Source: a bacterium (GTDB lineage: Bacteria; Patescibacteriota; Minisyncoccia; UBA6257; WO2-44-18). From it: a DNA stretch of 64,000 nucleotides. Positions 19,838-55,172 of this stretch are shown one piece after another. The notes beneath the pieces are model-generated. The model was not told where the DNA came from, ran no database searches, and saw only the letters and a list, made by a program, of their open reading frames with translations. The position numbers and the translations under genes were made by a program. The stretch is from positions 8,624 to 72,623 of the forward strand of contig JAUSKF010000006.1 in the NCBI GenBank assembly GCA_030646995.1, in the 5' to 3' direction. The stretch's first letter is position 1. Each line of letters starts with the position of its first letter.

Positions 19838-21224
19838 TGCTTCGGACCAGAAACACTCCTTGTTGCACTACTTCTTTAAGGGCGAGGCCCTGAAGAGGTT
19901 TTTTGATACGCTGGCGACCGGCATCGGGTTAATCAATTCCTACTTCATCATCAGCACTCTCTCCGTTTTCCACTTCGGTTTGTATCAGTTAGTACTATCT
20001 TTCATAGCCATACTGGACGGCTTCAGTTTGGATGTGATGGATGGAGTGGTAGTGGTAGATATGCGTAGTTATCTTAATAAAGGTTTGAGGGGAGCCGCTA
20101 AAAAACTTTATTTGGCGTATATAAAGTTGAAACTTGGAATCTCTATCATGATGGCGGTCGGCGCTTTTTTCCTTTCCGGCATAATTGCCAAGTCTTATAG
20201 CGAGGACATCGGACTGCTGATAAAGATCGCCAGCTTGCTGCTGATATTCAGATCCCTTCAATCATTGGAGTCGTTGATTCTGAAAGTGATAATGAACTTT
20301 ACTTATTGGAGTTATCCGGCCGTGCGCGAGGTCGCCAAGTTGGGTCTTATTATATTTTTGTTGGTTACGAGTGGAAGTTTTTCAATAGTTCAACTGCTGA
20401 CCGCCCACGTTATAGCCGATGGCGTGGCGGTGCTGTTTCTGACCTTGGTTTTGTTTTGGAGGAATTTTTATAAGGTATTTCACGGGGTCGTTAGCGATGC
20501 CGAGAACCACTTGTGGGGGGTAATCAAAACATATGGCCATTGGACGGTTTTGCGTTATGTTTTTTCCAAGATCAGCAAAAATGTCACACCCTGGTTCTTG
20601 AAGTTCTTTATTAACACAGAGGCGGTCGCTTTTTATTCGTTAGCGATCAATCTCATAGCCTTTATCGAGAATCTATTTCCTCTGGATGGGCTTTCCCCGA
20701 TCCTGGCTCTTAAGTCGGACAATCGGGGGGAAATTAGCTTTATCTTCAAGAGGGCGGTTAAGTACGCTTTTTGGTTGGGAATGATTCTAATGGTAGTGAG
20801 TTTTATCTTCGTGCCTCCGGTGGTGACGTTTATTTTCCCCAAGTATCAGCCGGCCATGCCCATCTTCAAGGTAATGATTTTGGCTTTGCCTATTTTCGGA
20901 TTCTATAAGATTCTTAAGGCTACTTTGACGGTTTTGAAAGAGCAGAGAGTGCTAACGATGCGTCTACTGAACGAATCATTGATGGTGCCGCTGGGTTTGA
21001 CTATCTTCCTGCCAATCTTTAAATTGGCGGGAGCTGGCGCGGCATACGCTATGGCTTACGTAGAAAGAGTTTGGTTCTTTTATTCCCAGCTGATTAAGAA
21101 ATATCCGGAATTTCGGATTAAGATTCGGCAGTTCTTCAAGATTGATGAATATGACCGCGAAATTTTTCGTCGTACGATCCGGCGTCCTTTGCAGGCGATT
21201 AAAGAATTGCGAAAAAATAAATAA
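19827..21224 (+). CDS. Polysaccharide biosynthesis/export membrane protein (Wzx/MOP flippase-like, about 12 TM helices)
   Basis: Roughly 465-aa multi-pass protein with a Wzx-like N-terminus (LKRFFDTLATGIGLINSYFI). The start is set to the internal ATG at 19827 (MIINAS), which overlaps the upstream GT4 by 11 nt. Confidence 0.5.
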   Translation: MIINASDQKHSLLHYFFKGEALKRFFDTLATGIGLINSYFIISTLSVFHFGLYQLVLSFIAILDGFSLDVMDGVVVVDMRSYLNKGLRGAAKKLYLAYIKLKLGISIMMAVGAFFLSGIIAKSYSEDIGLLIKIASLLLIFRSLQSLESLILKVIMNFTYWSYPAVREVAKLGLIIFLLVTSGSFSIVQLLTAHVIADGVAVLFLTLVLFWRNFYKVFHGVVSDAENHLWGVIKTYGHWTVLRYVFSKISKNVTPWFLKFFINTEAVAFYSLAINLIAFIENLFPLDGLSPILALKSDNRGEISFIFKRAVKYAFWLGMILMVVSFIFVPPVVTFIFPKYQPAMPIFKVMILALPIFGFYKILKATLTVLKEQRVLTMRLLNESLMVPLGLTIFLPIFKLAGAGAAYAMAYVERVWFFYSQLIKKYPEFRIKIRQFFKIDEYDREIFRRTIRRPLQAIKELRKNK

Positions 21225-22570
21225 TGCAAACCAAAACCGTTTTTATATCCTGTTTTTTTAATCTGGTGGCGCGCAATGTTTTGGAAACCAGTTTTTTTCA
21301 AAAATTGCGCAGCCGTACCGATTTGAAGATTGTTCTTCTTGCTCCGCAGGGCAAAGGAGATTTTTTTCGTAAGGAATTTGGTGGATCGAATGTGGCGGTG
21401 GAGGAGGTGCCGACGCGTCCGATGTCCAAACCTGGTCTTTTGTTTCACTTGTTGGCGTGGAATTTATTAAGAACAAAGAGCAAGGAGATACACCGCTTTG
21501 TTCAGTTAGGAAAGGACCGTAATTATGCGCGATATTTTTTCACGTCGGCCATGAATTGGTTTGGTGGTCGGCCGCTTATTCGCCGAGCGTTTCGTTATTT
21601 CGATGCCTTTATGCCTAGCGGTGGCTTTGACTATCTTTTTGATCGTTATCGGCCAGATTTGGTGTTTGCCACAGATATTCAAGATCTACGTGTGCAGGAG
21701 TTAAGCGATACCGCGCTTATCCGGGCCGCTCGGCGACGGGGAGTGAACAGCGTGGGTATGTCGCGCTCGTGGGACAGCATGACCACTAAGGGGTTGCTGC
21801 GCACCCTGCCCGATTTGTTAGTAGTTCAAACAGACAATATCAAAAGCCAGGCAGTCGCCTACCACAGCGTCCCCGCTGATCGTGTGGTCGTAGTCGGCGT
21901 GCCACACTATGATTCCTATATAACCGGTACTCGGACATCCCGAGAAGATTTTTTCAAAAGGATCGGGTTGGATCCGGCTAAAAAACTTATATTTTTTGCC
22001 CCACCCAGCGATATTTGGACCGGCGACAAGTCTTTGAACCCATTTTTATTCAAAACGATCGCTTCCATTGGGGAGCAAGTGGTCGCCCGCTTTCCTATAT
22101 TTGGAGAGTTGGACCTAGGGGATTTCGCGCGACCCGCTAATATGGTTTTTGACCGACCAACCAACTCGGATAATTTAGCGGAGGCTTTATTAGCGAAAAA
22201 AGACGATGCCCACTTTGCTAATCTTCTCTACCACAGCGATGTAGTAGTTACTGGGCCGTCGAGTGTGATCTTAGATGCTTCTCTATTCAATAAGCCAACG
22301 ATCTTGATCGGTTTTGATGGAGAAAAAATAAAGCCCTATTGGCAAAGATTGAGTCGATATTATGATTACGAACACCAGGATGCGGCGATCAGGTTAGGCG
22401 AGCTTAGGGTCGCCAAAAGCCGGGGAGAGCTGGTAGAGTATATAAAAGAAGGTCTTAGTCAGCCTAAGCGCGGAGAAGAGGGTCGTCGACGGTTAGCAAA
22501 TAGTTTCTGCCAGGATTTAGACGGAAGATCCGGGGAGCGTTTGGCGGCAGCGATCACTGATAATCTATGA
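21224..22570 (+). CDS. TagB/TagF-like (CDP-glycerol glycerophosphotransferase family, PF04464-like) polyol-/glycosyl-phosphate transferase, paralog 1
   Basis: C-terminal TagF-like signatures VVTGPSSVILDASLFNKPTILIGFDGE (compare ITDYSSVFFDYALLDKPIIFF) and terminal DGRSGERLAAAI. One of five paralogs in the window. Confidence 0.5.
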   Translation: MQTKTVFISCFFNLVARNVLETSFFQKLRSRTDLKIVLLAPQGKGDFFRKEFGGSNVAVEEVPTRPMSKPGLLFHLLAWNLLRTKSKEIHRFVQLGKDRNYARYFFTSAMNWFGGRPLIRRAFRYFDAFMPSGGFDYLFDRYRPDLVFATDIQDLRVQELSDTALIRAARRRGVNSVGMSRSWDSMTTKGLLRTLPDLLVVQTDNIKSQAVAYHSVPADRVVVVGVPHYDSYITGTRTSREDFFKRIGLDPAKKLIFFAPPSDIWTGDKSLNPFLFKTIASIGEQVVARFPIFGELDLGDFARPANMVFDRPTNSDNLAEALLAKKDDAHFANLLYHSDVVVTGPSSVILDASLFNKPTILIGFDGEKIKPYWQRLSRYYDYEHQDAAIRLGELRVAKSRGELVEYIKEGLSQPKRGEEGRRRLANSFCQDLDGRSGERLAAAITDNL

Positions 22571-23256
22571 AATATTTGAGCCCCGAAGATATAAAGAATT
22601 CTCCAGATGAGTTGATGGCGCTACAACAGCACGCTAGCTGGGATATCCGTAGTGGCCGGGCTTTAAGCTTGGTCCAGCGGTATGTCCCCGATAAAGATGG
22701 AGCGATTTTGGATTGCGCCTCTGCTAGCGGCGGATTTTTGTTACAGTTGGCGAAAAACGGCTATTCCAACGTCAACGGATTGGATATTGACGACTATCGC
22801 CAGCCGGAAGCGAAGAAATTTAATTTCAAAACAGGCGATGTTTGTCTGCAACCGATACCTTGGCCGGACCATTCCTTTGACGCAGTAGTTTCTTTGCAGA
22901 CCATAGAGCATTTGGAGAATCCATATTATTTTGTTCGTGAGGTAAGTCGGGTTTTAAAGCCCGGCGGTATTTTTACTGTTTCTATGCCGAATCCATTTCA
23001 TATTTTAAATCGCCTGCTCTTTTTATCCCGCGGCAATCTATATCATTGGCTGGAAAGTGACAATCACATCACCTTTTTTACTAAAGCGACTTTTAAAAAG
23101 GCATTTTTGAATAATTTTAAATTGTTGGAGATGGGTTATTCCAAGCCGGAGTTTAAGTACCACATCTTCAGCCGCCTACGAGCTTTTTGGAAGATTTTGC
23201 CCGCAAATCAGTGGTTTGGCCGCTATACTTATTTTGTATTGAAGAACAAGGAATAA
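22567..23256 (+). CDS. Class I SAM-dependent methyltransferase
   Basis: Motif I ILDCASASGGF, DAVVSLQTIEHLENP, LKPGGIFTVSMPN. Confidence 0.65.
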   Translation: MKYLSPEDIKNSPDELMALQQHASWDIRSGRALSLVQRYVPDKDGAILDCASASGGFLLQLAKNGYSNVNGLDIDDYRQPEAKKFNFKTGDVCLQPIPWPDHSFDAVVSLQTIEHLENPYYFVREVSRVLKPGGIFTVSMPNPFHILNRLLFLSRGNLYHWLESDNHITFFTKATFKKAFLNNFKLLEMGYSKPEFKYHIFSRLRAFWKILPANQWFGRYTYFVLKNKE

Positions 23257-23269
23257 GATTTCAGGATGA

Positions 23270-23299
23270 TTGACTGATCCGCCTCTTTATCTTAAATTG
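23270..23299 (+). promoter_or_regulatory. Candidate promoter TTGACT -18- TAAATT
   Basis: Hexamers only. It lies upstream of the NeuC-like gene, which has an AAGGAAA Shine-Dalgarno sequence at 23328-23334 and a TTG start. Confidence 0.2.
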
Positions 23300-23340
23300 T
23301 GGCTAGTTGTTTTATATCAGTTTTTTAAAGGAAATCAAAA

Positions 23341-24498
23341 TTGCGCAGAAAAATTTGTGTGTTCTCCGGTAAGCGCGGTGGATTCGGGGCTTATCTGAAC
23401 TTGATGCGTTTAATCGAGAATGATCCTGATCTAGAATTGCAGATCATTTTGAGCGATATGCACGCTTCCGATAAATTCGGAGCGACCGCAAAAGAGGTGA
23501 AAGGATTTTTCCCTAACGTAGATATGGAAGTGGTTCCGATGAATTCCTCCAGCTCAGATTCTCCGGTGGCTCGCGCAACGAATCTTGGTGCCTGCCTAGA
23601 AGGCTTGGCTCCGGCGCTCGAGCGTCTTAAGCCGAATATTCTGATGGTGCACGGAGATCGCGGAGAACATTTGATGGCAGCATTTGCAGCTCTCAATCTT
23701 GGCATCCCCGTTACTCACACCCAAGGAGGCGAGACTTCCGGAAACATCGATGATGTTCAGCGTCATGCGATTACCAAGTTGGCACATTTGCATTTTCCGG
23801 AAACAGAGAAGGCAGCCCAGAAGATCCGCGCACTTGGAGAAGATGATTGGAGAATCCGAGTTGTCGGGTCTTTGTATATCGATCGGATCGTGGGAAAGCA
23901 GTACTCCGATGTCGGTGAGATGAAGAAGCGTTATGATGCGCCCGGTGAGTACGTTCTCGTGTTGTATCATCCCGACACCTTTCTTACCCCTGCCGAGAAT
24001 CGACAAGTGATGACGGACATCCTGGTTGCGGTTATGCACGTATGGAGGATTAGGACGATCGTCGTTCATCCTTGCTCTGATCCCGGTCATGAGGAAGTGA
24101 TTAGCACAATCAACGCCGCGAAAAAAGAAGACGTTTTTGACCACCTTCGGGTTTACAAGAACATCGATAACTTAGACTTCTTGGGGTTGATGGCCGGTGC
24201 CAGTGCCCTGATTGGAAATTCTTCCGCCGCCTTGGTCGAGGCTCCTTATTTTCATCTGCCGGCAGTCAATGTCGGAGATCGGCAGCGAGGGCGTGATCAC
24301 GAGCTGAACATCATCAACTCCGCAACGGAAATAAATTCCATCGTGAACGCCGTGGGTAAGGCGATCAACCCCTCTGGCGATTTGCGGGATATTTTGAAGA
24401 GTTGTGGGCAGAGATTGGGCGATGGGCATGCCTCCGAAAAGATTTTTGCGGCTCTGAAAGCAGTAGAGATCAACGAAAAACTTTTGCGTAAAAGTTAA
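23341..24498 (+). CDS. UDP-N-acetylglucosamine 2-epimerase, hydrolysing type (NeuC/LegG-like)
   Basis: RKICVFSGKRGGFG...DPDLELQIILSDMH (compare NeuC ILCITGTRADFG...HPDLELHLIVTGMH); HGDRGEHLMAAFAALNLGIPVTHTQGGE. TTG start with a good Shine-Dalgarno sequence, and an in-frame TAA 12 nt upstream. Confidence 0.7.
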   Translation: MRRKICVFSGKRGGFGAYLNLMRLIENDPDLELQIILSDMHASDKFGATAKEVKGFFPNVDMEVVPMNSSSSDSPVARATNLGACLEGLAPALERLKPNILMVHGDRGEHLMAAFAALNLGIPVTHTQGGETSGNIDDVQRHAITKLAHLHFPETEKAAQKIRALGEDDWRIRVVGSLYIDRIVGKQYSDVGEMKKRYDAPGEYVLVLYHPDTFLTPAENRQVMTDILVAVMHVWRIRTIVVHPCSDPGHEEVISTINAAKKEDVFDHLRVYKNIDNLDFLGLMAGASALIGNSSAALVEAPYFHLPAVNVGDRQRGRDHELNIINSATEINSIVNAVGKAINPSGDLRDILKSCGQRLGDGHASEKIFAALKAVEINEKLLRKS

Positions 24499-24523
24499 CC
24501 CGGCTAGAAAGGCCGGGTTTTTA
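24499..24523 (+). terminator. Rho-independent terminator CCCGGCtagaaagGCCGGGTTTTT
   Basis: Starts immediately after the stop codon. Confidence 0.6.
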
Positions 24524-24570
24524 ATTTGTTGTAAAATAATGCGTGCGCAGTTATATTGAGATTGGTTTAC

Positions 24571-25284: not shown

Positions 25285-25294
25285 AGCCATATTT

Positions 25295-26191: not shown

Positions 26192-26255
26192 TTTTGACTA
26201 TCCCACGTATTTTATTGCATACTACCCCTAGTTGTTTAACAAGAGAGGAGTAGAT

Positions 26256-29610: not shown

Positions 29611-29671
29611 CTTAAATTGCCAAACCGGCTTTAAATTGTTAATTTATGGTTATAACTTCCGTCTATCAGAT

Positions 29672-31865: not shown

Positions 31866-31866
31866 A

Positions 31867-37044: not shown

Positions 37045-38364
37045 ATGCGAACCATCTTTTTATTCGTGGATAAGCCGACTTTCATAGGGGACCTGTTGGA
37101 CACCTCTTATCTGCCTTACCTAGCCTCCAAATATAAGGTGATAGTTTTTACTCGCAAAGTAGACCAGCGGGAGGCGGCGGCGCGCGGTTACCACCAGTCG
37201 CCAAATATTACTTATATGAAATGGCAGATCGAGAACAATCGTCTGCTGGGAGCGATGAAGTTTTTCCGATTTTCCTGCATACGGGAATTCGATTATCTGA
37301 TTACCACAAAATATATACGCAATCGCCGCGGTGAAGATGGAAATAGTTCTCTATTAAGAATTGCCTCTTGGCCCTTAGCCTGGTTGTTCACCTCAAAGTT
37401 TTTTAATTTCATTGAGCGTTTGCTGATGAGGCGTTCGGCCAAGTTTTCCGAATATTGCCGGACTTATCAGCCATCACTGGTCATCACCGCCACCCCCGGT
37501 TTGAATAATTTTGAGGCGGAAGCGGTTTGGCTCGCTAAAAAAGCCGGCCTGCCTACGGTAGCGGTCGATTGCGCTTGGGACAACCTCACTACCCGTGTTA
37601 CCCGCGTTCGTCCCACTGACTATTTTTTTGCCTGGCATGAGCCGATGCGTCAGGAGGCGATAAGGATACACGGCCTTTCTCCGGAACGAGTGCAGGTTAC
37701 CGGACCTTTGCGTTTTGATTATTACTTCACCAAGGAGCCTCAGCAGCCAACCAAGGAAGAGTTTTTGCAATCGTGCGGGCTGGATCCGAAGCTGCCGGCC
37801 ATTTTATATACCACGCAAAAATCCCATCTTTTTGAGGATGATTTTTTAAGGAATCTTATCCAGATGCGTAATGAGCAGCAGATCCCATATGCCAGCATCT
37901 TTATCAGAGTGCACCCACTGGCAAAGCCGGGCCGTTTTCAGGAATTTGAAAAGTTGAAAGATATTTTTGTTGATAGGCCGACAGAAGTTATGTCGTCTGC
38001 CGATCTACGTCATTTAAAATACTCGCTTATGTATGCCGACCTGAATATTAACTATTCCTCCACCATTTCTTTGGAGGCGATGGCTTTTGATAAGCCGGTG
38101 ATAAATTATTTCGAGCCCAGCCTGAAAAGTTTTGAGTTGAATCATTATAAGCCCTTGTTGGATATGAAAGCGTTAAAGTTGGTTTATGACACCAAAAATG
38201 AGCTGGCCAAAGCCATCCGCGATTATTTAGAAGATCCGAGTATTGATCGGGAAGCCCGCAATAAGGTTTTGAATATCTATTTCCCGTTCCGGGACGGCCT
38301 GTGTTATAAGAGGAATGTAGATTTCCTAGAGGAAATTGCAAATTATGGAAATAAGAAAGATTAA
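37045..38364 (+). CDS. TagB/TagF-like polyol-/glycosyl-phosphate transferase, paralog 2
   Basis: LVITATPGLNNFEAEAVWLAKKAGLPTVAVDCAWDNLTTR; C-terminal INYSSTISLEAMAFDKPVINYFEP. Homologous to the ORFs at 21224, 39444, 40809 and 53823. Confidence 0.5.
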   Translation: MRTIFLFVDKPTFIGDLLDTSYLPYLASKYKVIVFTRKVDQREAAARGYHQSPNITYMKWQIENNRLLGAMKFFRFSCIREFDYLITTKYIRNRRGEDGNSSLLRIASWPLAWLFTSKFFNFIERLLMRRSAKFSEYCRTYQPSLVITATPGLNNFEAEAVWLAKKAGLPTVAVDCAWDNLTTRVTRVRPTDYFFAWHEPMRQEAIRIHGLSPERVQVTGPLRFDYYFTKEPQQPTKEEFLQSCGLDPKLPAILYTTQKSHLFEDDFLRNLIQMRNEQQIPYASIFIRVHPLAKPGRFQEFEKLKDIFVDRPTEVMSSADLRHLKYSLMYADLNINYSSTISLEAMAFDKPVINYFEPSLKSFELNHYKPLLDMKALKLVYDTKNELAKAIRDYLEDPSIDREARNKVLNIYFPFRDGLCYKRNVDFLEEIANYGNKKD

Positions 38365-39443: not shown

Positions 39444-40799
39444 ATGAAAACGATTTTTCTAACTAGTTTTAATCCGTTTATCGCGCGCAACATTCTGGCT
39501 ACGGATGTTTTGCGGATTTTGAAGGAATGCAGCGATTTGAAGATCGTAGTTTTTGTGCCAGATTATAAAATTGATTGGTTTAAGAAGAATTTTTCCGGAC
39601 TGAATGTGGTTTTTGAAGGCATTATGTCGCAAAAGATTTCCCGCACCGATGTTATTTTTACCTACCTTGCCAGCTCTCTTTTAGACAGTAAGACCTTGGC
39701 CATTCATAAGAGAGAAGAATTGGCGAAGGATCATAATTATTTTAAATTCGCAGCCTCTTGGGCGCTCAGGAAAATCATTGGCCGCGCAAAAACCTTTCGC
39801 TGGTTAGTTCGATTGCTGGATAGTAAATTTTCTTTCAGATTGGAGTTGAAAAAATATTTTGATAGTTATAAGCCAGATCTTTTGTTTGCGACTGATGTTT
39901 ATCACAATGACGATGTCCATTTTCTATTGGAGGCCCAGCGGCGCTGTGTCTCTACGATCGGAATGATCCGTTCTTGGGATAATATTACTAACAAGGGAAT
40001 TTTCCGGGCCAAGCCCGATCAGTTGATTGTGCACAATGAAACCATTCGGGATGAGGCGGTCCAATTCAATGATTTCAATTCTGAGAAAATTTTTGTTTCC
40101 GGCATCCCTCAATATGATGACTTCGTTAAAGGGCAGAGGATGGAGCGAGCGGAATTTTTCGCCAAGCTCGGGCTGGATCCAGCGAAGAAACTTATTATGT
40201 ATTCTCCGTTTGGAGGTCGTTTTTATAAATATGACGGAGAAATATTAGAAATTTTAAAGGAGTTAGGTGAGCAAGTTCTGGTGCGCATGCCCCCAAACGA
40301 CAAGACTGAATTGATAGGCTTCCAGCCAACAAAACTTTTTTATATTGATCAGTCTGGTCACAAATTCCAAAAAGATACTTTGCGTGATGTGGAATTAAAC
40401 CAGCAGGATATGCGTTGGCTCGGAGATTCCTTGTATCATACCGATGTGCTGGTCGCCTGCGGGGCAAGTATCGCTATTGATGCCGCGCTATTCAACAAGC
40501 CGTCCGTATTCATTTATTTTGATGGCTTAGAAGAAGATTTGCCGTACATGAAGAGTGCTCGCCGATGGCTAGATTTTGACCATGCGAGAAAGCTTCGGGA
40601 TCTCGGCGGATCAGTGTCGGCGATGAGTAAAAAGGAATTACTGGAATTCGTCGGGTCTTTTTTGAGGAATCCGGCCAAGGATCAAGAGAAGAGGAGGGCT
40701 CTAGCCGAAAAGCAGTGCTGGAAGTTGGACGGAAGATCGGGCCATCGGATTGCCGAATTTATTTTAGCCAGAATTGACCTTCAGCGTTTCGGAGGATAG
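39444..40799 (+). CDS. TagB/TagF-like polyol-/glycosyl-phosphate transferase, paralog 3
   Basis: MKTIFLTSFNPFIARNIL N-terminus shared with the paralogs; LVACGASIAIDAALFNKPSVFIYFDGLEEDLPY; terminal LDGRSGHRIAEFI. The start is moved to the ATG at 39444. Confidence 0.5.
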   Translation: MKTIFLTSFNPFIARNILATDVLRILKECSDLKIVVFVPDYKIDWFKKNFSGLNVVFEGIMSQKISRTDVIFTYLASSLLDSKTLAIHKREELAKDHNYFKFAASWALRKIIGRAKTFRWLVRLLDSKFSFRLELKKYFDSYKPDLLFATDVYHNDDVHFLLEAQRRCVSTIGMIRSWDNITNKGIFRAKPDQLIVHNETIRDEAVQFNDFNSEKIFVSGIPQYDDFVKGQRMERAEFFAKLGLDPAKKLIMYSPFGGRFYKYDGEILEILKELGEQVLVRMPPNDKTELIGFQPTKLFYIDQSGHKFQKDTLRDVELNQQDMRWLGDSLYHTDVLVACGASIAIDAALFNKPSVFIYFDGLEEDLPYMKSARRWLDFDHARKLRDLGGSVSAMSKKELLEFVGSFLRNPAKDQEKRRALAEKQCWKLDGRSGHRIAEFILARIDLQRFGG

Positions 40800-40808: not shown

Positions 40809-42161
40809 ATGAAGACAGTCTTTTTAGCGGTGCCGCACGCGGTATTTTCCTCGGACCTTTTACGGACAAAATATATAGAGTATTTGGCTCAGAAATATAA
40901 AGTAGTGGTTTTGAGCGAAATGTTTGATGCCGCCGAGGCTAAGGAGCGAGGATATTTCCAGTCTTCAAATGTTGCATACATAAAGCGTGATATAGAGAAT
41001 CCGCGTTTTTGGGGCCGAATGAAATTTTTGCGCGTTGCCCTAATCAATGAGTTTGATTACTTAATTTCGATCAAGCATTTTTATAAGCGCCCCAACTATG
41101 CCAATAACTGGAAGAGAAGGGTGGTTCGCATGATTGGTTTGCCGTTCAAATATTTTTTGACCGCTGATTTTTTTACAAAATGGGAATTAAAATACTGCCC
41201 CATCTCCCCCCAATTCAATTCTTTACTTTCGGAGTATAAACCGGATCTACTGATTACCGCTACGCCGGGCTTTTCTCCTCTAGAGGCGGAATTAGTTGTT
41301 TTAGCGAAGCGCTCCGGCTTGCCGTCGGTAGCGGTTAACTTTAGCTGGGATAACCTGACTATGAATTCCAAGCATATCCGCAAAACCGATTGGTTGATCG
41401 CTTGGAATGAGGTGATGCGGCAAGAAGCTATTAATATACATAAATATTCTCCTGAAAAAGTTTCTGTGTCGGGTACTTTGAGATTTGACCCATATTTTGA
41501 TGACTCCGACGCTGTGATCGGAGCAGGTAAAGAAGAGCCAACGCGGAAAACTTTTTTGGAGTCCAAGGGATTGAACCCAGAGAATAAAACCGTTTTTCAC
41601 ACTACGGTTACTAAGGCTTACCCGTTCCAGAAAAAATATATTAATGATCTGATCAAATTGAGGGATTCCAAAAAAATCCCCTACGTTAATTTCTTGATCC
41701 GAATCCATCCCTTGGATTTGATAGAGAACTATTCGGAATTCAAGAATATTCCCGATCTTTGCTTGGAAAGGTCCGGTCAAAATGTAGAAATGAGCTATAC
41801 CGACCTGCTGAACCTTAAATATTCTTTGAAATATACCGATCTGAACATCAATTATGCTTCTACGATCACCATTGAGGCCTGTATTTTCGATAAGCCGGTC
41901 ATCAACATTGGCTATTTGGATCGCTTCGCCTTGGCCTATGAGTTCAACCATTATCAACCAATTTATGAAAGTGGAGCGATAAAGTTAGCGAAGACTGACG
42001 AGGACTTACCGATCCTTATTAATCAATACTTAGAGCATCCGGAATCAGGAAGGGAGCAGCGGTTAGCAATCGTGGATAAGTATGTACAATTCACTGATGG
42101 TTTATCATATAAACGTAGCGTAGACGCGCTAAGCGCAATATTTAAATATTTAAATATTTAA
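40809..42161 (+). CDS. TagB/TagF-like polyol-/glycosyl-phosphate transferase, paralog 4
   Basis: MKTVFLAVPH…; LLITATPGFSPLEAELVVLAKRSGLPSVAVNFSWDNLT; INYASTITIEACIFDKPVINIGY. Confidence 0.5.
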   Translation: MKTVFLAVPHAVFSSDLLRTKYIEYLAQKYKVVVLSEMFDAAEAKERGYFQSSNVAYIKRDIENPRFWGRMKFLRVALINEFDYLISIKHFYKRPNYANNWKRRVVRMIGLPFKYFLTADFFTKWELKYCPISPQFNSLLSEYKPDLLITATPGFSPLEAELVVLAKRSGLPSVAVNFSWDNLTMNSKHIRKTDWLIAWNEVMRQEAINIHKYSPEKVSVSGTLRFDPYFDDSDAVIGAGKEEPTRKTFLESKGLNPENKTVFHTTVTKAYPFQKKYINDLIKLRDSKKIPYVNFLIRIHPLDLIENYSEFKNIPDLCLERSGQNVEMSYTDLLNLKYSLKYTDLNINYASTITIEACIFDKPVINIGYLDRFALAYEFNHYQPIYESGAIKLAKTDEDLPILINQYLEHPESGREQRLAIVDKYVQFTDGLSYKRSVDALSAIFKYLNI

Positions 42162-46847: not shown

Positions 46848-46875
46848 TGATTATGAAACAAAAACTGGAAAATAT

Positions 46876-46900
46876 AAAGCCCCGATTTTGTCGGGGCTTT
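46876..46900 (-). terminator. Hairpin terminator AAAGCCCCGAttttgTCGGGGCTTT
   Basis: Immediately downstream (on the minus strand) of the stop of the DUF218-like gene. Confidence 0.5.
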
Positions 46901-46904
46901 GTTT

Positions 46905-47576: not shown

Positions 47577-47676
47577 GGGCCACCTCCTTTGTTGGGGTTC
47601 TGTGGGAAATAATAAATCAAAAAACCAGTAATGTCAAGGTTGAAAGAAAGCCGATTTTATCGTAAAATATCGGAGT

Positions 47677-49573: not shown

Positions 49574-51351
49574 TGAAGTTATCCGACTATTTAATTGAAT
49601 ATCTACGCGACCAAGGGGTGAAGGATGTTTTTTTGGTAACCGGAGGAGCGGTGGCGCACATCGTGGACTCTTTTCGAAACATAAAGGGCATTGATTATGT
49701 GTGCACCCAACACGAACAGCCGGCGGCGATGGCGGCAGAGGCTTACGCGCGTGTTACCGGAAATATTGGAGTGGCGATGGCGACCAGTGGGCCGGGAGCG
49801 ACTAATTTAATTACCGGAATGTGTTGCGCTTGGTTTGATTCTATCCCGACGGTTTATATCACGGGGCAGGTCAATCGCGGAGAGTCAAAAGGAAAGAGCG
49901 GAGCGCGGCAGGTCGGTTTCCAGGAAACCGACATTGTCAGCATGGTGAAGCCAATCACTAAGTACGCAGTATTAGTGGATGATCATTTGAAAATAAAATA
50001 TTACTTAGACAAAGCTTTTTATATGGCCAAAGAAGGCCGGCCCGGACCGGTTCTGATTGATGTGCCGATGGATGTCCAGCGGCAGGAAATTGACCCAGCG
50101 AAACTCAGGGGTTTTAACGCGCCGAAAGAAAAAACTGTGGATGCGGTTTTAAAAAAGAAAATTAAATCCGCCTTGGCATTGGTTGCGAAATCCCAGCGCC
50201 CGGTAATCCTTGCGGGTGGGGGAATTAAGTTAGCTAAGGGCAATGCTGAGCTTTTGGAATTCATTAAGAAAACCGGCTTCCCGGTAGTTACCTCTTGGAG
50301 CGGATTTGACCTAGTGCCGCACAACCATAAAATGTTGGTAGGGCAATTCGGAGTTTATGGAAACCGAGGAGCTAACTTTGCCGTGCAAAATGCTGATTTG
50401 ATAATTAGCGTGGGTTCTCGTTTGGATACAAGGCAAACCGGCGGCCGTCCGGCTACTTTTGCCAGAGAGGCAAAAAAAATTGTTGTGGACATTGATCAGT
50501 CTGAGCTGGATAAGCGCCGAGGTCTGACTCCTGATGTTGAGATTTGCGCCGACGCTAAGTTATTTTTGAAAGAGATGAATCAATCTCTTAAAGATATAAA
50601 AATTCCCAAGATTGATTCATGGCTGAAAAAGGCGGCTGAATGGAAAGTGAAATATCCTACAGTTCTCCCTGAATATGAAAAGCAAAAGGGCAGCGTTAAT
50701 TCCTATGTTTTCGCTAAAACTCTTTCCGAAGAAGCCGCGGCGAATTCAATCGTCCTTCCCGATGACGGAGGCAACCTTACTTGGACAATGCAGTCTTGGC
50801 AGCTGAAAGAAGGCCAGATGCTTTTTTCGGCCTTCGGGAATTCTCCGATGGGTTATTCTTTCCCGGCGGCGATTGGCGCTTCTTATGCCGCCGACCACAA
50901 ACGTCCGGTGATTTGTATCATCGGTGACGGCAGTTTCCAGATGAATATTCACGAACTGCAAACCGTTGCTCACTATAAGATTCCAATCAAGATATTTATT
51001 TTGAATAATCACTCTTACGGAATCATCAAGCAATTCCAGGATATGTATTTTGGTGGCCGACACGAGGCTTCTTCCTCGGACAAAGGCTATAGCTGTCCGG
51101 ATTTTATTAAAGTTGCTCAAGCATACGGGCTAAAGACTGTTTCTATTAATAATCATCAGGAGTTACGGAAAAAGATTAAGGAGGTGCTGGCCTCTAAGGA
51201 GGCAGTTCTATGTGATGTGTTGTTGGATGAAGGGCAAAAGTTGATGCCGAAATTGGAATTCGGAAAATCGATTGAAGACTTGATGCCTTATTTGCCGCGC
51301 GAGGAGTTTAAGAAAAATATGATCGTGAAGCCGTTGGACGAACCAAGATAA
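49573..51351 (+). CDS. Thiamine-pyrophosphate-dependent enzyme, acetolactate-synthase-like (YerE/IlvB family)
   Basis: TPP_enzyme N/M/C architecture; TPP-binding GDGSFQMNIHELQT with NN…; about 590 aa. Confidence 0.75.
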   Translation: MKLSDYLIEYLRDQGVKDVFLVTGGAVAHIVDSFRNIKGIDYVCTQHEQPAAMAAEAYARVTGNIGVAMATSGPGATNLITGMCCAWFDSIPTVYITGQVNRGESKGKSGARQVGFQETDIVSMVKPITKYAVLVDDHLKIKYYLDKAFYMAKEGRPGPVLIDVPMDVQRQEIDPAKLRGFNAPKEKTVDAVLKKKIKSALALVAKSQRPVILAGGGIKLAKGNAELLEFIKKTGFPVVTSWSGFDLVPHNHKMLVGQFGVYGNRGANFAVQNADLIISVGSRLDTRQTGGRPATFAREAKKIVVDIDQSELDKRRGLTPDVEICADAKLFLKEMNQSLKDIKIPKIDSWLKKAAEWKVKYPTVLPEYEKQKGSVNSYVFAKTLSEEAAANSIVLPDDGGNLTWTMQSWQLKEGQMLFSAFGNSPMGYSFPAAIGASYAADHKRPVICIIGDGSFQMNIHELQTVAHYKIPIKIFILNNHSYGIIKQFQDMYFGGRHEASSSDKGYSCPDFIKVAQAYGLKTVSINNHQELRKKIKEVLASKEAVLCDVLLDEGQKLMPKLEFGKSIEDLMPYLPREEFKKNMIVKPLDEPR

Positions 51352-52517
51352 TGGAGCATCAATTTTCTAAAGACGCAAAAAATTTAGTTGGCAGCCCGAT
51401 GTTCAAAATGATGGCGCGGGTGCAGGAGCTGGAAAAGTCCGGCAAGAAGATCATCCATTTTGAAATAGGCGATCCCGATTTTTCCACGCCTCAGCGTATT
51501 ACCGATGCGGCAATCGATGCTTTGAAGGCCGGAGAAACTCACTATGTGAATTCTTCCGGTATGGCCCAGCTACGCGATGCTATCTGCGATTCCACCGAAA
51601 AAGATCTGGGTTGGAGGCCGGAGCGTGAGCAGGTCGTCGTTGCCCCAGCGATTTCTTTTATTTATTTTACCGTCCGGGCGTTGGTTAATCCCGGTGAAGA
51701 AGTGATTGTAGCAGAGCCGGGCTATTCTTCATATTTTTCTACTTTTGACTTCATCGGCGTAAAGGCCGTCACCGTTCCGGTATTTGAAAAGAATAATTTT
51801 CGGCTAGCGGCGGCCGATCTGGAAAAAGCGATTACTCCAAAAACTCGGTTGGTAATTCTCACTTCTCCTAGTAATCCGACCGGGGCGATGATGACCAAGG
51901 AGAATTTGACGGCCATCTACAAGCTGGCGGAGAAGCATAATTTTTATATCTTGAGCGACGAGGTTTATAAAAAAATGACTTACGACTTGCCCTTTAGCTC
52001 CATTTCGGCCAACGACCGTTGCCAGGAACGGGTGATTATTTTGGATGGATTTTCAAAGGCTTATGCAATGACTGGCTGGCGTCTGGGTTATTCTATTGCT
52101 CCGAAGCCAATCGCTGAAAAATTAGGATTAATGATTCAGACGGTCATTTCCAATGTGCCCCCATTTATTCAATTGGCAGGCGTTGAGGCCCTTTCCGGAG
52201 ATCAGAGCAGTATAAAAGTGATGATGGATGAGTATCGAAAGAGAAAGGATGTGATGATTAAAGGATTTAATGAATTGCCTGGAGTTTCCTGCATAGATCC
52301 CGATGGAGCTTTTTATGCATTTCCGAATATTCAGAAAACCGGAATGACCAGCAAAGAATTTGCGGAATTTATTTTAGAAAAGGCCAACGTTGCGCTGTTG
52401 CCCGGCACTGATTTTGGGCCGCACGGCGAGGGATATTTACGTGTTACCTTTGCCACCTCTTTGTCTAATATTGAAGAAGGGCTTCGCCGGATGAAAGAAG
52501 CGCTGTCAAAAAAATAA
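51351..52517 (+). CDS. PLP-dependent aminotransferase, class I/II (AspB-like)
   Basis: IHFEIGDPDF, SPSNPTG, PLP-Lys SKAYAMTGWRLGY. Confidence 0.7.
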   Translation: MEHQFSKDAKNLVGSPMFKMMARVQELEKSGKKIIHFEIGDPDFSTPQRITDAAIDALKAGETHYVNSSGMAQLRDAICDSTEKDLGWRPEREQVVVAPAISFIYFTVRALVNPGEEVIVAEPGYSSYFSTFDFIGVKAVTVPVFEKNNFRLAAADLEKAITPKTRLVILTSPSNPTGAMMTKENLTAIYKLAEKHNFYILSDEVYKKMTYDLPFSSISANDRCQERVIILDGFSKAYAMTGWRLGYSIAPKPIAEKLGLMIQTVISNVPPFIQLAGVEALSGDQSSIKVMMDEYRKRKDVMIKGFNELPGVSCIDPDGAFYAFPNIQKTGMTSKEFAEFILEKANVALLPGTDFGPHGEGYLRVTFATSLSNIEEGLRRMKEALSKK

Positions 52518-52518
52518 A

Positions 52519-53823
52519 ATGGATAAAGAAATAGCGGGTTTCATAAAAAAGTATTACCAGAAGAACTTCGCGGGGAAGAAATTCGTTCCCGGCGAAACAC
52601 ATATTCCCGCTTCGGGAAAATCTTTTGATTATCAGGAGATGGTTTTGATGACGGAAGCCGTTTTGGATGGTTGGTGGACCGAGGGACGGTTCGCGGCGGC
52701 TTTTGAGAAGCAGTTGGCCGAATTCGTAGGCGTCAAACATTGCGTTACCACCAATTCCGGATCTTCGGCCAATCTTCTGGCTATTTCCGCGCTGACTTCT
52801 TATCATCTGGGCGAACGACGCTTGAAACCGGGAGATGAAGTGATTACTTTGGCAGCCGGATTCCCAACCACTATTAATCCGATAATTCTTCATCAAGCCA
52901 TCCCGGTTTTCGTGGATATTGATCTCGCGACTGCCAACGTGGATATTGGAAAATTAGAGAAAGCTTTCTCTAAAAAAACTAAAGCTGTGTTCCTTCCTCA
53001 CCATCTCGGCAATCCATTTAACGTGGCAGCCGTTCAGAAGCTTTGCAAAAAACATAAAGCCTGGCTGATAGAGGATTGTTGCGATGCTCTGGGGGCGAAA
53101 TTCGGTGGGAAGCGCGTCGGCAGCTTCGGCGACTTGTCCACCTTCAGTTTTTATGCCGCACACCACATAACCAGCGGAGAAGGAGGAGCGATAATGACCA
53201 ATGATGAGCGGCTGGCCGCCATCGTGCGTTCATTCCGTGATTGGGGTCGGGAATATTGGTTCAAGACTGGCGAGGATATCCGACGCAACAAAGGCCTGGG
53301 AACGGTTAAGCACAGCAAGCTTCCGGCTGATTACGATGATAAATTTATCTTCTCCGAGATCGGCTACAACCTGCGCCTGACCGATATGCAGGCCGCGCTG
53401 GGTTTAGTTCAACTCGGAAAGATCGGAGAGTTCGCGAAACGTCGGGAAAGCAATTTCCAATATTTGTATAAGTTGATGAGCCCGTATAAAAAGTTCTTTA
53501 TTTTGCCGGGCATGGAAAAATCCGCAGCGCCTTCTTGGTTTGGATTTTTAATGACCCTGAAGCCGGATTGCCCATTTACTCGTAAGGAATTCGTGGATTA
53601 TTTGCACAAACACAACGTTGGTACCCGTATGTTCCTCGCCGGCAACGTTATCAAGCAGCCGTACTTCCAGATATATAAGGTAAAGTTTAAAGCTGGGAAT
53701 CTTGCCAGCACGGATTACGTTTTGAGTAATTCCGTTTGGGTCGGAGTCCATCAGGCGATTGATAATGAGAGGAGGGAATATATGGGGAAAGTCTTGAAGT
53801 CGTTTTTGGCGAAGTATAAATAA
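52519..53823 (+). CDS. DegT/DnrJ/EryC1/StrS-family PLP/PMP enzyme, RfbH/DdhC-like (CDP-4-keto-6-deoxyglucose 3-dehydratase-like)
   Basis: KKFVPGETHIPASGKSFDYQEMVLMTEAVLDGWWTEGRF…VKHCVTTNSGSSANLLAISALTS matches the RfbH N-terminus; 434 aa, which is the RfbH size class. Confidence 0.7.
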   Translation: MDKEIAGFIKKYYQKNFAGKKFVPGETHIPASGKSFDYQEMVLMTEAVLDGWWTEGRFAAAFEKQLAEFVGVKHCVTTNSGSSANLLAISALTSYHLGERRLKPGDEVITLAAGFPTTINPIILHQAIPVFVDIDLATANVDIGKLEKAFSKKTKAVFLPHHLGNPFNVAAVQKLCKKHKAWLIEDCCDALGAKFGGKRVGSFGDLSTFSFYAAHHITSGEGGAIMTNDERLAAIVRSFRDWGREYWFKTGEDIRRNKGLGTVKHSKLPADYDDKFIFSEIGYNLRLTDMQAALGLVQLGKIGEFAKRRESNFQYLYKLMSPYKKFFILPGMEKSAAPSWFGFLMTLKPDCPFTRKEFVDYLHKHNVGTRMFLAGNVIKQPYFQIYKVKFKAGNLASTDYVLSNSVWVGVHQAIDNERREYMGKVLKSFLAKYK

Positions 53824-55172
53824 TGACAAAGACCATTTTTATTACGATCTTCCAAGGAGTGGAGGCGCGTAATATTCTCCGAACCGATATATATAAGGAA
53901 TTGGTTGGTCGTCCGGATGTTCGGCTGGTTCTTTTTACCGACAGTGAAGAGAAAAGGAATTATTATCAAAAGGAATTTAACGGTCCGAACGTGATCTATG
54001 AGGTCGTTGGGGAATATCACGCTCGCGGCATTCAGAAATTTTTTGGTGCAGCCAAATTCAATCTAATTAATACTGCCACGGTTGATATTAAAAGAGATAT
54101 CCTGTTTTTCAAAGAACATAGTTATCTGAAATTTTATCGGCGGTGGCTGATCAATCGGCTGTTCGCGCGCAATTTTGTTCGCCGGATAGTTCGCTGGTTG
54201 GACTGGCGGTTGGTTTCTGACCAGTTTTTTAAAAAGTATTTTGATCAATACGATCCGGATCTAGTCCTATCAGCACATCTTTTTGGTGGCACAGAGACCG
54301 CAGTGATTCGGGAGGCGCGCCGTCGTGGAGTTGTCAGCGTCGGATTGATCAATTCCTGGGATAAACTGACCGCCAGAGCAATGATCCGTTTGCTTCCGGA
54401 TTGGATGATTGTTCATAACGATTCAGTGAAAAAAGATGCGATTATTTATGCCGATATGCCAGCTGGTCGCATCTTCGTTTCCGGCATACCCCACTTCGAT
54501 CGGTATAAGACCGGGACCAGGGCTCCGCGCGATCGCTTTTTGCAAGAGATCGGCCTTGACCCCGATAAAAAAACCATTTTGTATCTTCCAGTCGGTCGCG
54601 CCGCCAGTGATGATGATGCCGATATGATGAAATTTTTTGCCGATCTGTTATCGGATAAACGTTTGAAATTTCCGACTCAGCTGATTTTTCGATTCCCGCC
54701 TAATGATGAGATTGTCGCGGAGGGAAAATTTCCAAATGGTGTAGTTATTCAAACACCGGGACGAAGATTCTCTTTGAAACGTGGATCGGATTGGGATATG
54801 AATGAGGACGATTTCCGGATCCTAGCCGACACAATTACTAGCAGTGATGTCGTGGTCGGGTATCCTTCAACGATGATGATAGATGCGGCGATTTTTGATA
54901 AGCCGGTGATTAACATTGCATATGAGCGGCGCCCGCATCCCCGAAATTTCATCCTCTGGGCTTACGAGGTGGATCACTATCGGTCCGTGCTCAATACCGG
55001 CGCCGTCCGGTTGGTTAAGAATGACGATGAATTAATTGATCAGCTGAATGCTTATTTTGCGGATCCTTCATCGGATCGTGAGGGGCGCCGTCGTTTAGTC
55101 GCGGAGCAATGCGGCGCACAGGACGGTAAGGCGGGAAAGCGGGTGGCGGATTTTTTGCTAAACCGTATTTAA
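53823..55172 (+). CDS. TagB/TagF-like polyol-/glycosyl-phosphate transferase, paralog 5
   Basis: MTKTIFITIFQGVEARNIL; VVGYPSTMMIDAAIFDKPVINIAYE; terminal QDGKAGKRVADFLLNRI. Confidence 0.5.
   Translation: MTKTIFITIFQGVEARNILRTDIYKELVGRPDVRLVLFTDSEEKRNYYQKEFNGPNVIYEVVGEYHARGIQKFFGAAKFNLINTATVDIKRDILFFKEHSYLKFYRRWLINRLFARNFVRRIVRWLDWRLVSDQFFKKYFDQYDPDLVLSAHLFGGTETAVIREARRRGVVSVGLINSWDKLTARAMIRLLPDWMIVHNDSVKKDAIIYADMPAGRIFVSGIPHFDRYKTGTRAPRDRFLQEIGLDPDKKTILYLPVGRAASDDDADMMKFFADLLSDKRLKFPTQLIFRFPPNDEIVAEGKFPNGVVIQTPGRRFSLKRGSDWDMNEDDFRILADTITSSDVVVGYPSTMMIDAAIFDKPVINIAYERRPHPRNFILWAYEVDHYRSVLNTGAVRLVKNDDELIDQLNAYFADPSSDREGRRRLVAEQCGAQDGKAGKRVADFLLNRI

Follow-up and report, generated by a model that had tools for sequence, protein, structure and literature searches.

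Organization of the five paralogs

Five genes encoding TagB/TagF-like proteins lie within a 50-kb surface-sugar gene island in the window, a 64-kb stretch of DNA from an uncultured ultrasmall (CPR) bacterium. All are on the + strand and begin and end exactly where the original prediction had placed them: paralog 1 (448 aa) at 21224-22570, paralog 2 (439 aa) at 37045-38364, paralog 3 (451 aa) at 39444-40799, paralog 4 (450 aa) at 40809-42161 and paralog 5 (449 aa) at 53823-55172. The start of paralog 3 was set at 39444, though the longest ORF begins at 39399, because this fits the other N-termini and leaves no overlap with the upstream gene. The five align end to end, and all ten pairs are significant by BLASTP, with E values between 3e-19 and 2e-124, against 9e-4 at best in 500 shuffled comparisons. 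They fall into subgroup A (paralogs 1, 3 and 5; 32-36% identity) and subgroup B (paralogs 2 and 4; 44-45%), with 19-30% identity between the two. In order along the DNA they belong to orthogroups A2, B2, A3, B1 and A1. Since each of these orthogroups is conserved across CPR genomes, the paralogs have diverged anciently and specialised, as had been proposed, rather than arising by recent duplication. The clade to which they belong is large and, in this sample, nearly all from CPR/Patescibacteria.

The description of paralogs 2 to 4 as a tandem array holds for 3 and 4, which are separated by only 9 nt, but a GNAT-like acyltransferase of 367 aa (38336-39439, +; PF00583 E 1.5e-6) splits 2 from 3. 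Directly upstream of paralog 1 is a multi-TM protein of about 9 segments (19788-21224, +) resembling polysaccharide flippases, though its PF01943 match (E 8e-6) is below cut-off; its stop overlaps the start of paralog 1, whose own stop overlaps by 4 nt the SAM methyltransferase directly downstream (22567-23256, +). The start codon of paralog 5 similarly overlaps the stop of an RfbH equivalog (52519-53823; NF011936, 569 bits vs 423).

Family assignment and fold

The predicted relationship to the TagF-like family is real. Four of the five proteins match PF04464 above the gathering cut-off (paralogs 1, 2, 3 and 5, with E values of 7e-14, 5e-8, 2e-10 and 1e-12), while paralog 4, the least PF04464-like copy, is just under it (21.1 bits; cut-off 22.1). 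Profile-profile alignment with hhalign pairs them with bona fide TagF, TarL and TagD/TarIJ-linked plasmid homologs at 95.6-98.2% probability, and in the PDB only TarL and Cps3D match in sequence with E below 0.001. They also share the C-terminal nucleotide-binding motifs of TagF-type proteins: Y-x-S-S/T, F-x-K-P and D-G-x-S/A-x-x-R. AF2 models of paralogs 4 and 5 (pLDDT 93.6 and 91.4) show confident GT-B folds, and TM segments are absent from the models. We place the paralogs in the TagB/TagF superfamily, as GT-B enzymes that are soluble or peripheral.

These matches would suit genuine TagF/TagB-type CDP-polyol (or CDP-X) phosphotransferases, priming and polymerising a phosphodiester-linked, teichoic-acid-like glycopolymer, but the more specific models do not follow: the NCBIfam TarF/TarB models give at most 26 bits for any of the five, against cut-offs of 500 or more. 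The top NCBIfam match for all of them is instead NF046086, the BFO_1060 family, at 43-80 bits (71.5 for paralog 2, 80.5 for paralog 4); these scores are far under the 200-bit cut-off, and the paralogs are therefore not members of NF046086. Paralog 2 also scores 34 bits against TIGR04396.

The best structural neighbours of the paralogs act on nucleotide sugars as epimerase/hydrolase-like enzymes, so one might consider that the paralogs are enzymes of that kind, or non-catalytic scaffolds, and not transferases at all. We regard this as very improbable: PF02350 scores reach at most 21.8 bits (cut-off 30.6), both PF04464 and NF046086 similarity are stronger, and the island already has a dedicated NeuC equivalog. 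Inert scaffolds are further disfavoured because the cleft residues are strictly conserved across about 2,000 clusters.

Motifs and catalytic residues

An alignment of 277 family members (154 B-types and 123 A-types) bears out the SWDxxT and FxKP blocks as common to all. The other predicted signatures are features of subgroup A only: where A has the N-terminal ARNIL block, B has S/GDLL, and where A has the C-terminal DG(R/K)(S/A)GxR, B has DGL(S/C)YKR.

In the TagF-like family the two histidines that define catalysis are reported to be invariant and essential. The catalytic-base histidine (WHG motif) has no counterpart in any of the five paralogs, and the beta5-loop is without histidine in 267 of the 277 family members. 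The loop in which TagF carries this histidine has an invariant W-D in the five paralogs, with W in 273 and D in 275 of the family, though the W-D cannot be equated residue by residue with W-H-G, the edge of the hhalign alignment being unreliable there. This aspartate might in principle serve as a phosphoryl-transfer base too. The second histidine is present in R-x-H-P form in every B-type (154/154) and replaced by Q or P in every A-type (123/123); H300 of paralog 4 aligns with TagF H584 by hhalign. Accordingly, paralogs 2 (AWDNLT, IRVHPL) and 4 (NFSWDNLT, IRIHPLD, FTDGLSYKRS) retain it, and paralogs 1 (SRSWDSMT, RFPIFG), 3 (IRSWDNIT, VRMPPND) and 5 (INSWDKLT, FRFPPND) have neither signature histidine. 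The P-T-x-R motif, invariant in the reference TagF-type proteins, is also not conserved in the five. Judging from these alignments, the clade no longer has the His-His phosphotransfer dyad that genuine teichoic-acid enzymes carry.

Neighbouring genes and related loci

Between paralogs 1 and 2 lie a NeuC-type hydrolysing UDP-GlcNAc (or UDP-diNAcBac) 2-epimerase (23341-24498, +; TIGR03568 307.6 bits vs 235.9; Pfam Epimerase_2), a CMP-nonulosonate/ulosonate synthetase-type cytidylyltransferase of the CTP_transf_3 family (24556-25284, +; PF02348 E 6e-28), a polysaccharide deacetylase (25295-26191) and a D-2-hydroxyacid/phosphoglycerate dehydrogenase-like enzyme (29636-30634, +). The CTP_transf_3 protein matches the PseF model over its full length at 162.5 bits (cut-off 205.7) and is the candidate supplier of a CMP-sugar donor. 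NeuB, the nonulosonate synthase, was not found within the 64-kb window.

Nine related loci, each at least 7.7 kb long, were compared with the window. The CMP-sugar synthetase occurs in all ten, usually accompanied by NeuC/NeuB; NeuB is present in six of the related loci (L002, L004, L007, L009, L011 and L019). B2 orthologs adjoin CTP_transf_3 in L002-L004, with NeuB nearby in L002 and L004, and the dehydrogenase-like gene travels with CTP_transf_3 (syntenic in L006, L007, L009, L018 and L019). One B1 ortholog, P0163, carries an in-frame CTP_transf_3 fusion, and the window protein is 45% identical to the C-terminal half of P0163; the fusion was seen once, on a single contig, and the closest relatives of P0163 lack it. 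By comparison, genes for a CDP-glycerol or CDP-ribitol synthase (TagD/TarI/TarJ), whose presence would be expected of the phosphodiester polymer originally predicted, were found neither in the window nor in the nine related loci, with PF01467 (TagD) and PF01128 (TarI) both at zero.

Paralog 4 is followed directly by another polysaccharide deacetylase (42172-43113, +), a B1-deacetylase pair conserved in L002, L003, L004 and L011, and then by a 610-aa protein (43097-44929, +) with about 9 predicted TM helices and a soluble C-terminal domain. The latter has no match in Pfam, NCBIfam or PDB, but as a partner of these transferases it is conserved, being syntenic in L002-L004, L011, L018 and L019; P0088 joins an A1 to the N-terminal segment of this protein (E 8e-23). 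Orthologs of a second methyltransferase (17035-17673) immediately precede B1 in L007 and L011, and the ortholog of the 367-aa GNAT-like protein in L007 adjoins a formyltransferase and A3. Other relatives contain fusions of one paralog to another (e.g. A3::A1 in P0273), of a methyltransferase to a paralog (P0127, TylF::B1, and P0287) and of a paralog to a deacetylase (P0316), mirroring the gene order of the window, and we take them as a sign that the paralogs and their partners act together. Such multi-domain fusions look like those of TagF-like capsule polymerases, a point in favour of the phosphotransferase reading.

That reading also draws on the acylation module following paralog 5 (55191-57962, +), which recalls teichoic-acid D-alanylation. 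It consists of a GNAT (55191-55667), a holo-ACP synthase (55944-56291), an amino-acid adenylation enzyme (56279-57757; TIGR01733 370 bits vs 317) that is DltA-like at 327 bits, below 476, and a carrier protein (57741-57962; PP-binding 24.4 bits vs 20.8). DltB and DltD are absent, however, GNATs being there instead. The whole module is arranged alike in L011, and A1 is also followed by ACPS, AMP-binding and carrier proteins in L007, L009 and L018.

A second cytidine-nucleotide donor route abuts paralog 5. A glucose-1-phosphate cytidylyltransferase-like enzyme (44983-45786, +; CDP-glucose; TIGR02623 292 bits, cut-off 300), the RfbH equivalog and an AHAS-like TPP enzyme (49573-51351; 481 bits), which presumably resembles YerE, form a CDP-3,6-dideoxy/branched-hexose branch of the island. 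This we count in favour of sugar transfer.

Proposed function

With the TagF catalytic histidines missing and sialic-acid-type genes as neighbours, attachment of CMP/CDP-activated sugars is likelier than synthesis of a teichoic-acid-like phosphate polymer. We give about even odds (roughly 50%) to the paralogs being cytidine-nucleotide-dependent glycosyltransferases that attach such sugars and act jointly on an acidic glycan with decorations. CDP-polyol phosphotransfer we consider unlikely; the loss of histidine, the low Tar scores and the CMP-sugar synthetase leave the CDP-polyol-based polymer unsupported.

In the favoured sugar-transfer reading, ancestral cytidine-nucleotide binding and CMP-leaving-group chemistry would most likely have been retained, with a sugar as cargo in place of a polyol-phosphate. 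Subgroup B pairs the invariant Asp of W-D, in the N-domain cleft, with an R-x-H-P that corresponds to both TagF H584 and the sialyltransferase "HP"; the sugar it transfers is proposed to be a CMP-activated nonulosonic (sialic-acid-like) one, and this donor would come from the adjacent NeuC/CMP-sugar-synthetase/2-hydroxyacid-dehydrogenase module. For subgroup A, with both histidines lost, the proposed donors are CMP-sugars bearing other decorations, or the island's CDP-deoxyhexose. The five may act in sequence on a lipid-linked glycan, joined by the methyltransferases, deacetylases and acyl-carrier module that flank them, after which flipping and handling of the glycan would fall to the 9-TM partner.

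The donors might also be mixed, with CMP-nonulosonates for subgroup B and, for subgroup A, either CDP-hexoses, namely the island's own 3,6-dideoxy/branched sugar, or different NDP-sugars, A acting as ordinary glycosyltransferases or sugar-1-phosphate transferases. The RfbH overlap with the start of paralog 5, the cytidylyltransferase and AHAS-like enzyme in the same block, the small sugar-1-P nucleotidylyltransferase that precedes A1 in L007 and L009, and the lack in subgroup A of the HP histidine that B has in common with CMP-sugar enzymes all point this way. Yet what lies upstream of A1 differs from genome to genome (a methyltransferase, a GT2, the 9-TM protein or a nucleotidyltransferase), RfbH not being conserved there; the small NTP-transferases may use a nucleotide other than CTP; and A-types co-occur with CTP_transf_3 in every locus. 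Mixed donors thus seem to us a minority possibility.

Comparison with known systems

Relative to the TagF-like reference set (TagB, TagF, TarF and TarL, the capsule polymerases Cps3D, Cps7D and Bcs3, and Pfam PF04464), the paralogs have about 70-90 aa of extra helical sequence inserted into the N-domain, in addition to lacking the W-H-G histidine (and, in subgroup A, the second one as well), a CDP-polyol synthase nearby and more than near-noise scores with the Tar/Tag equivalog HMMs. They differ from the UDP-GlcNAc 2-epimerase/NeuC family (PF02350) in their sub-cut-off scores and TagF-like C-terminal motifs, with a bona fide NeuC encoded separately in the island.

The best curated match, N-terminal acceptor-side domain included, is to the TagB-like GT-B family of BFO_1060/Tanf_01245, a transferase whose knock-out in T. 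forsythia leads to loss of the terminal Pse/Leg derivative; CMP-NulOs are the proposed donors there, the evidence being genetic, not biochemical (PMC5420450). The paralogs differ from it in their scores, in lacking the strict sialyltransferase D/E-D/E-G motif, in number (five per locus vs one) and in coming from CPR rather than Bacteroidota. They are like it in length (about 440-450 aa), in the HP motif of subgroup B and in linkage to CMP-nonulosonate biosynthesis genes. The proposed chemistry, with a CMP-ulosonate donor, an Asp-type base and an HP histidine at the phosphate, all on a GT-B fold, would also be that of the GT-B bacterial sialyltransferases and CMP-Kdo transferases (GT38 SiaD, GT52, GT80 and GT30 WaaA).

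Five TagF-like paralogs in two subgroups

Five open reading frames encoding TagB/TagF-like proteins have been found on the + strand of the window (copy 1, 21224..22570; copy 2, 37045..38364; copy 3, 39444..40799; copy 4, 40809..42161; copy 5, 53823..55172), exactly where the original prediction had placed them, and all five align with each other over their full length. Each of the 10 pairwise BLASTP comparisons gives a significant match, with E between 3e-19 and 2e-124, against a lowest value of 9e-4 in 500 comparisons of shuffled sequences. Copies 1, 3 and 5, here called subgroup A, share 32-36% identity, and copies 2 and 4 (subgroup B) share 44-45%, with 19-30% identity between the subgroups. 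The motifs thought to be common to all five are so in part, ARNIL and DG(R/K)(S/A)GxR being restricted to subgroup A. The description of three copies in tandem was also loose: copies 3 and 4 do directly adjoin (9-nt gap), but copies 2 and 3 are not adjacent, since a 367-aa GNAT-like ORF lies between them.

The exact window proteins are already present in the NCBI record for this MAG (copy 4 has the locus tag Q7S83_03565), and the source labels for the paralogs are "CDP-glycerol glycerophosphotransferase family protein" or "hypothetical protein". Homologs with a named organism come from Parcubacteria, Patescibacteria, Saccharibacteria or Minisyncoccia MAGs. With clusters defined at 50% identity, an exhaustive profile search gave 1,993 of them within E <= 1e-30, rising to 11,308 when the limit was E <= 1e-3; a single-protein scan of genome contigs yielded 4 loci, and tblastn of paralog 4 against plasmids gave no match. 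Each window copy falls into an orthogroup of its own (A1, the copy at 53823; A2, 21224; A3, 39444; B1, 40809; B2, 37045), and its orthologs in other CPR loci are 39-76% identical to it. Because this is well above the identity between paralogs, the duplications must be ancient and the copies specialized, in agreement with the original view of functional specialization rather than recent duplication.

Relationship to the TagF-like family and its signature histidines

The predicted fold of the paralogs is a GT-B fold resembling that of TagF/TarL, and a role other than that of a transferase seems very improbable. A search with PF04464 (cut-off 22.1 bits) gives 52.0, 32.8, 40.4 and 48.1 bits for copies 1, 2, 3 and 5, as had been anticipated, and 21.1 bits for copy 4, slightly under the gathering cut-off; the matches cover chiefly the C-terminal two-thirds of the proteins. 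The competing model PF02350 (UDP-GlcNAc 2-epimerase) does not reach its cut-off of 30.6 bits, its best score being 21.8 bits for copy 2, with 12.7 bits or nothing for the others. With the NCBIfam equivalog models for TarF/TarB, whose cut-offs are 500 bits or more, no paralog scores above 26 bits.

Members of the TagF-like family have two invariant, essential histidines that define the mechanism, the first acting as catalytic base (TagF H444, TarL H300) and the second contacting the phosphate and protonating the leaving group (TagF H584, TarL H433) (PMC10901376; PMC5974469). The equivalents in Cps7D are H612 (the catalytic base, in a W-H-G/A motif) and H743. In PDB alignments the histidines fall in Q-T-W-H-G and L-R-M-H-Y/P, the published Cps7D mutagenesis primers (PMC5974469) decode to T-W-H-G-T-P and R-G-H-S, and both residues are invariant in the reference set (n=7 for the catalytic-base His). 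In the paralogs the corresponding loop follows strand beta5, has the sequence (S/A)-W-D-x-(L/I/M)-T, as in ...VGLINSWDKLT..., and is free of His in all five; among family members the W is found in 273/277 and the D in 275/277, and 267/277 have no His in the segment. A direct exchange of H for D at the same column was considered and dropped, as the hhalign alignment is untrustworthy across the WHG region; since the register of W-D relative to W-H-G is unreliable at this edge, our claim extends only to the absence of the His and the presence of an invariant Asp in the loop. The second His is retained in subgroup B, where R-x-H-P occurs in 154/154 B-type sequences, aligned with TagF H584 (IRIHPLD and IRVHPLA against TagF LRMHYL). 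In subgroup A the same column is P or Q in 123/123 sequences, all of which have an invariant C-domain His in an "xxHY" motif. In paralog 4 the loop Asp is D181 and the His of R-x-H-P is H300, and a further conserved His is H381 (EFNHY), which corresponds to H385 of paralog 5. P-T-x-R, invariant in the reference sequences, is not conserved in the paralogs. The idea that the five proteins are CDP-polyol phosphotransferases building a phosphodiester-linked polymer thus fits poorly, with the catalytic-base His missing from all of them and the second His missing from subgroup A.

Supply of cytidine-activated donors

No TagD/TarI/TarJ/Bcs1-type CDP-polyol synthase gene (PF01467, PF01128) was detected among the scanned window ORFs of at least 100 aa, nor were these domains found in the nine related CPR loci annotated with Pfam, and tblastn with an approximate TagD probe gave no match, so that the donor supply called for by the phosphotransferase reading was not found in the window or in these loci. 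The paralogs differ here from the reference TagF-like proteins of loci L013 and L014, which adjoin TarI/TarJ or tagD. Because the loop Asp could serve as a base, and because the genome was seen only within the window, we still grant classical TagF-type phosphotransfer a small share of the probability.

The window does encode two other cytidine-nucleotide routes. Near paralog 1, a NeuC equivalog (307.6 bits, cut-off 235.9) comes just before a CMP-sugar synthetase resembling PseF (162.5 bits, under its cut-off of 205.7). The second route is a CDP-sugar branch, all on the + strand, with a glucose-1-phosphate cytidylyltransferase-like gene (44983-45786), a full-length acetolactate-synthase-like TPP enzyme (49573-51351; 481 bits, below cut-off) which may resemble the branched-sugar enzyme YerE, an aspartate-aminotransferase-like enzyme (51351-52517) and an RfbH equivalog, a CDP-6-deoxy-4-hexulose 3-dehydrase (52519-53823; 569 bits, cut-off 423), the stop of which overlaps the paralog 5 start codon. 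For this branch the window showed no clear candidate for a CDP-glucose 4,6-dehydratase or an E3 reductase. A mixed-donor variant, in which subgroup B would use CMP-nonulosonates and subgroup A CDP-activated hexoses or other NDP-sugars, is considered unlikely. NeuB is not encoded in the 64-kb window; NeuB (PF03102) is found in six related loci (L002, L004, L007, L009, L011 and L019). The nine related loci come from different CPR lineages and carry 2-5 paralogs each, always together with CTP_transf_3, which is thus present in 10/10 loci including the window; five of the nine also have a 2-hydroxyacid dehydrogenase, and some have EamA transporters or a NeuC-like epimerase.

The surrounding glycan island

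From about 13.6 kb to its right end at 64 kb, the window is taken up almost entirely by a single + strand glycan island. Besides the paralogs it includes GT4 and GT2 glycosyltransferases, a flippase-like protein, two methyltransferases, two polysaccharide deacetylases and GNATs. Two radical-SAM enzymes, a B12-binding KedN5-like C-methyltransferase (703 aa, 26232-28343, +) and a SPASM/twitch-domain protein (429 aa, 34734-36023, +), represent unusual chemistry for a surface-glycan locus. A UDP-sulfoquinovose-synthase-like SDR (384 aa, 28422-29576, +; a full-length equivalog match at 475 bits, cut-off 575) hints that the glycan may contain a sulfonated or SQ-like sugar. The equivalent island of L019 has a sulfotransferase. 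Serine hydroxymethyltransferase (SHMT) and FolD are encoded inside the island (30627-32646, +), and another, more divergent gene of FolD type is found at the start of the window (150-935, +); related loci contain FolD with a formyltransferase, suggesting N-formylation of an amino sugar.

Paralog 5 is followed by an acylation module (55191-57962, +), which begins with a GNAT and an ORF of 82 aa and continues with a holo-ACP synthase, a DltA-like enzyme for amino-acid adenylation (327 bits) and a carrier protein of 73 aa; neither DltB nor DltD is present. The module probably N-acylates an amino sugar, using either an amino acid or a hydroxy acid. The order of A1 followed by a GNAT is shared by the window, L007 and L011, and that of A1 followed by holo-ACP synthase, adenylation enzyme and carrier protein by the window, L007, L009 and L018; in L011, the synthase and the beginning of an adenylation gene are seen up to the end of the locus. 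Beyond the module lie genes for a GDP-mannose 4,6-dehydratase, a DegT-type aminotransferase and a GDP-fucose-synthase-like reductase/epimerase (57969-61116, +), a predicted GDP-6-deoxy-(amino)hexose branch, perosamine-like, and then an 837-aa GT2 protein. Just upstream of the island, a 1250-aa protein (8960-12712, +) has an N-terminal hydrophobic segment, a single peptidoglycan-binding domain and no further recognisable domains; it is possibly a cell-surface protein and conceivably a target of glycosylation.

Membrane partner and gene fusions

The window also encodes a membrane protein (43097-44929, +; about 610 aa, about 9 TM helices) that has no match in Pfam, NCBIfam or PDB. Paralog B1 followed by a deacetylase and this 9-TM protein is found in the window, L002-L004 and L011, and similar proteins adjoin other paralogs in L011, L018 and L019; relatives have been located in L011 (16631-18451), L018 (6344-8227, 18017-19930), L019 (2300-6006) and L003 (12351-14180, 18297-20255). 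These proteins, which are about 600-650 aa long and whose C-terminal domain is soluble and measures about 190 aa, are conserved neighbors of the TagF-like paralogs, often with two copies per locus. A role of the 9-TM protein as a glycan polymerase, ligase or GT-C-like transferase of an undescribed kind is conceivable.

Several homologs are fused to the products of neighboring gene types. In P0163 (692 aa) a B1 ortholog is joined in frame to a CTP_transf_3 domain 45% identical to the window gene; this was at first regarded as strong Rosetta-stone evidence and has been downgraded, since a dedicated search showed it to be a singleton, to evidence of tight adjacency only. Others include TylF methyltransferase::B1 (P0127), paralog::methyltransferase (P0287), paralog::deacetylase (P0316) and an A3::A1 tandem (P0273), and these mirror the gene order of the window; P0088 joins an A1 homolog to the N-terminal segment of a 9-TM-type protein (E 8e-23). 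Two or three transferase domains each are present in P0273, P0274, P0276, P0278 and P0280 (about 900 aa), P0412 (1090 aa) and P0343 (1546 aa), the last of which has three, with SWDNLT and RPHP retained in every one. Such proteins resemble multi-domain capsule polymerases.

Proposed role and significance

The best-supported reading, to which we assign a probability of about 50% with its donor assignments and order of action included, is that the paralogs form a CPR-specific TagB/TagF clade that has kept cytidine-nucleotide binding and the chemistry of a CMP leaving group and has lost the phosphotransfer His dyad. Subgroup B, with its Asp and R-x-H-P, would most likely transfer a CMP-activated sugar of the nonulosonic type, and subgroup A, which has neither signature His, may transfer differently decorated CMP-sugars or a CDP-deoxyhexose. 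The five would probably act one after another on an acidic glycan linked to a lipid, with the methyltransferases, the deacetylases and the acyl-carrier module also taking part; the glycan would then probably be flipped and processed by the 9-TM partner. A broader proposal is more doubtful: that the family as a whole, some 2,000 clusters and nearly all CPR in our sample, has the TagF fold with the His-His dyad changed to Asp (plus His in one branch) and now consists of nonulosonic-acid/CMP-sugar glycosyltransferases, several per genome working as a polymerase-like team, and that their product, an acidic surface polymer rich in nonulosonates, with heavy N-acylation and methylation, and handed over by the 9-TM partner, stands in for teichoic acid in ultrasmall episymbionts.

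The genomes of CPR/Patescibacteria are reduced, and every member so far brought into culture lives as an episymbiont on another microbe (PMC11623550, PMC11809585); even so, about 50 kb of the window is devoted to one glycan island. Knowledge of the transferases for bacterial sialic-acid-like sugars is scarce, according to a study of Tannerella (PMC5420450); the paralog family would supply many diverse candidates, and would show how, in nature, the scaffold of a TagF-type phosphotransferase can be turned to other chemistry. For CPR bacteria, the literature that could be searched yielded nothing about nonulosonic acids, about teichoic acids or about a multi-paralog family of this kind, and a paper on Leptospira NulO does not mention transferases. 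Genome surveys that relied on the database name "CDP-glycerol glycerophosphotransferase family protein" would conclude that CPR bacteria have teichoic acids, a conclusion that is unsafe on present evidence.

Comparison with known systems

A different departure from polyol phosphates is likely in L015 (Segatella copri plasmid NZ_CP085933.1, 1-2857), where a bona fide PF04464 protein with both histidines follows phosphonopyruvate decarboxylase and phosphonoacetaldehyde reductase and precedes an O-antigen polymerase. It is likely a phosphonate-transferring TagF-like enzyme, and the diversity of donors in the superfamily would thus exceed polyol phosphates. A PEP mutase in L009 was considered as a similar sign of phosphonate transfer and rejected; it is not conserved and fits an acyl-donor route better.

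The best NCBIfam match for all five paralogs is NF046086 ("BFO_1060 family glycosyltransferase"), with 44.9, 71.5, 42.6, 80.5 and 59.9 bits for copies 1-5; at these scores, far below the cut-off of 200 bits, the paralogs do not count as BFO_1060 family members. Subgroup B also matches TIGR04396 ("surface carbohydrate biosynthesis protein"). The paralogs belong to a known superfamily but fail the defining tests of both the TagF-like and the BFO_1060 families. BFO_1060/Tanf_01245 is a TagB-like GT-B protein of Tannerella forsythia; when it is deleted, the S-layer O-glycan loses its terminal derivative of pseudaminic or legionaminic acid. The protein's presumed donors are CMP-nonulosonates, and sialyltransferase-type HP and D/E-D/E-G motifs have been described in it (PMC5420450). 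When the motifs are compared by description, HP is conserved in subgroup B only and none of the five window paralogs has a conserved D/E-D/E-G. Of the CMP-nonulosonate biosynthesis genes whose linkage is expected for this family (NeuC/LegG, NeuB/PseI/LegI, NeuA/PseF/LegF), the window has NeuC and, below its cut-off, a PseF-like synthetase, and NeuB occurs in the six related loci rather than the window itself. The T. forsythia protein shows that TagB-like scaffolds can serve nonulosonate transfer, for which such a scaffold would be usable because both reactions expel CMP.
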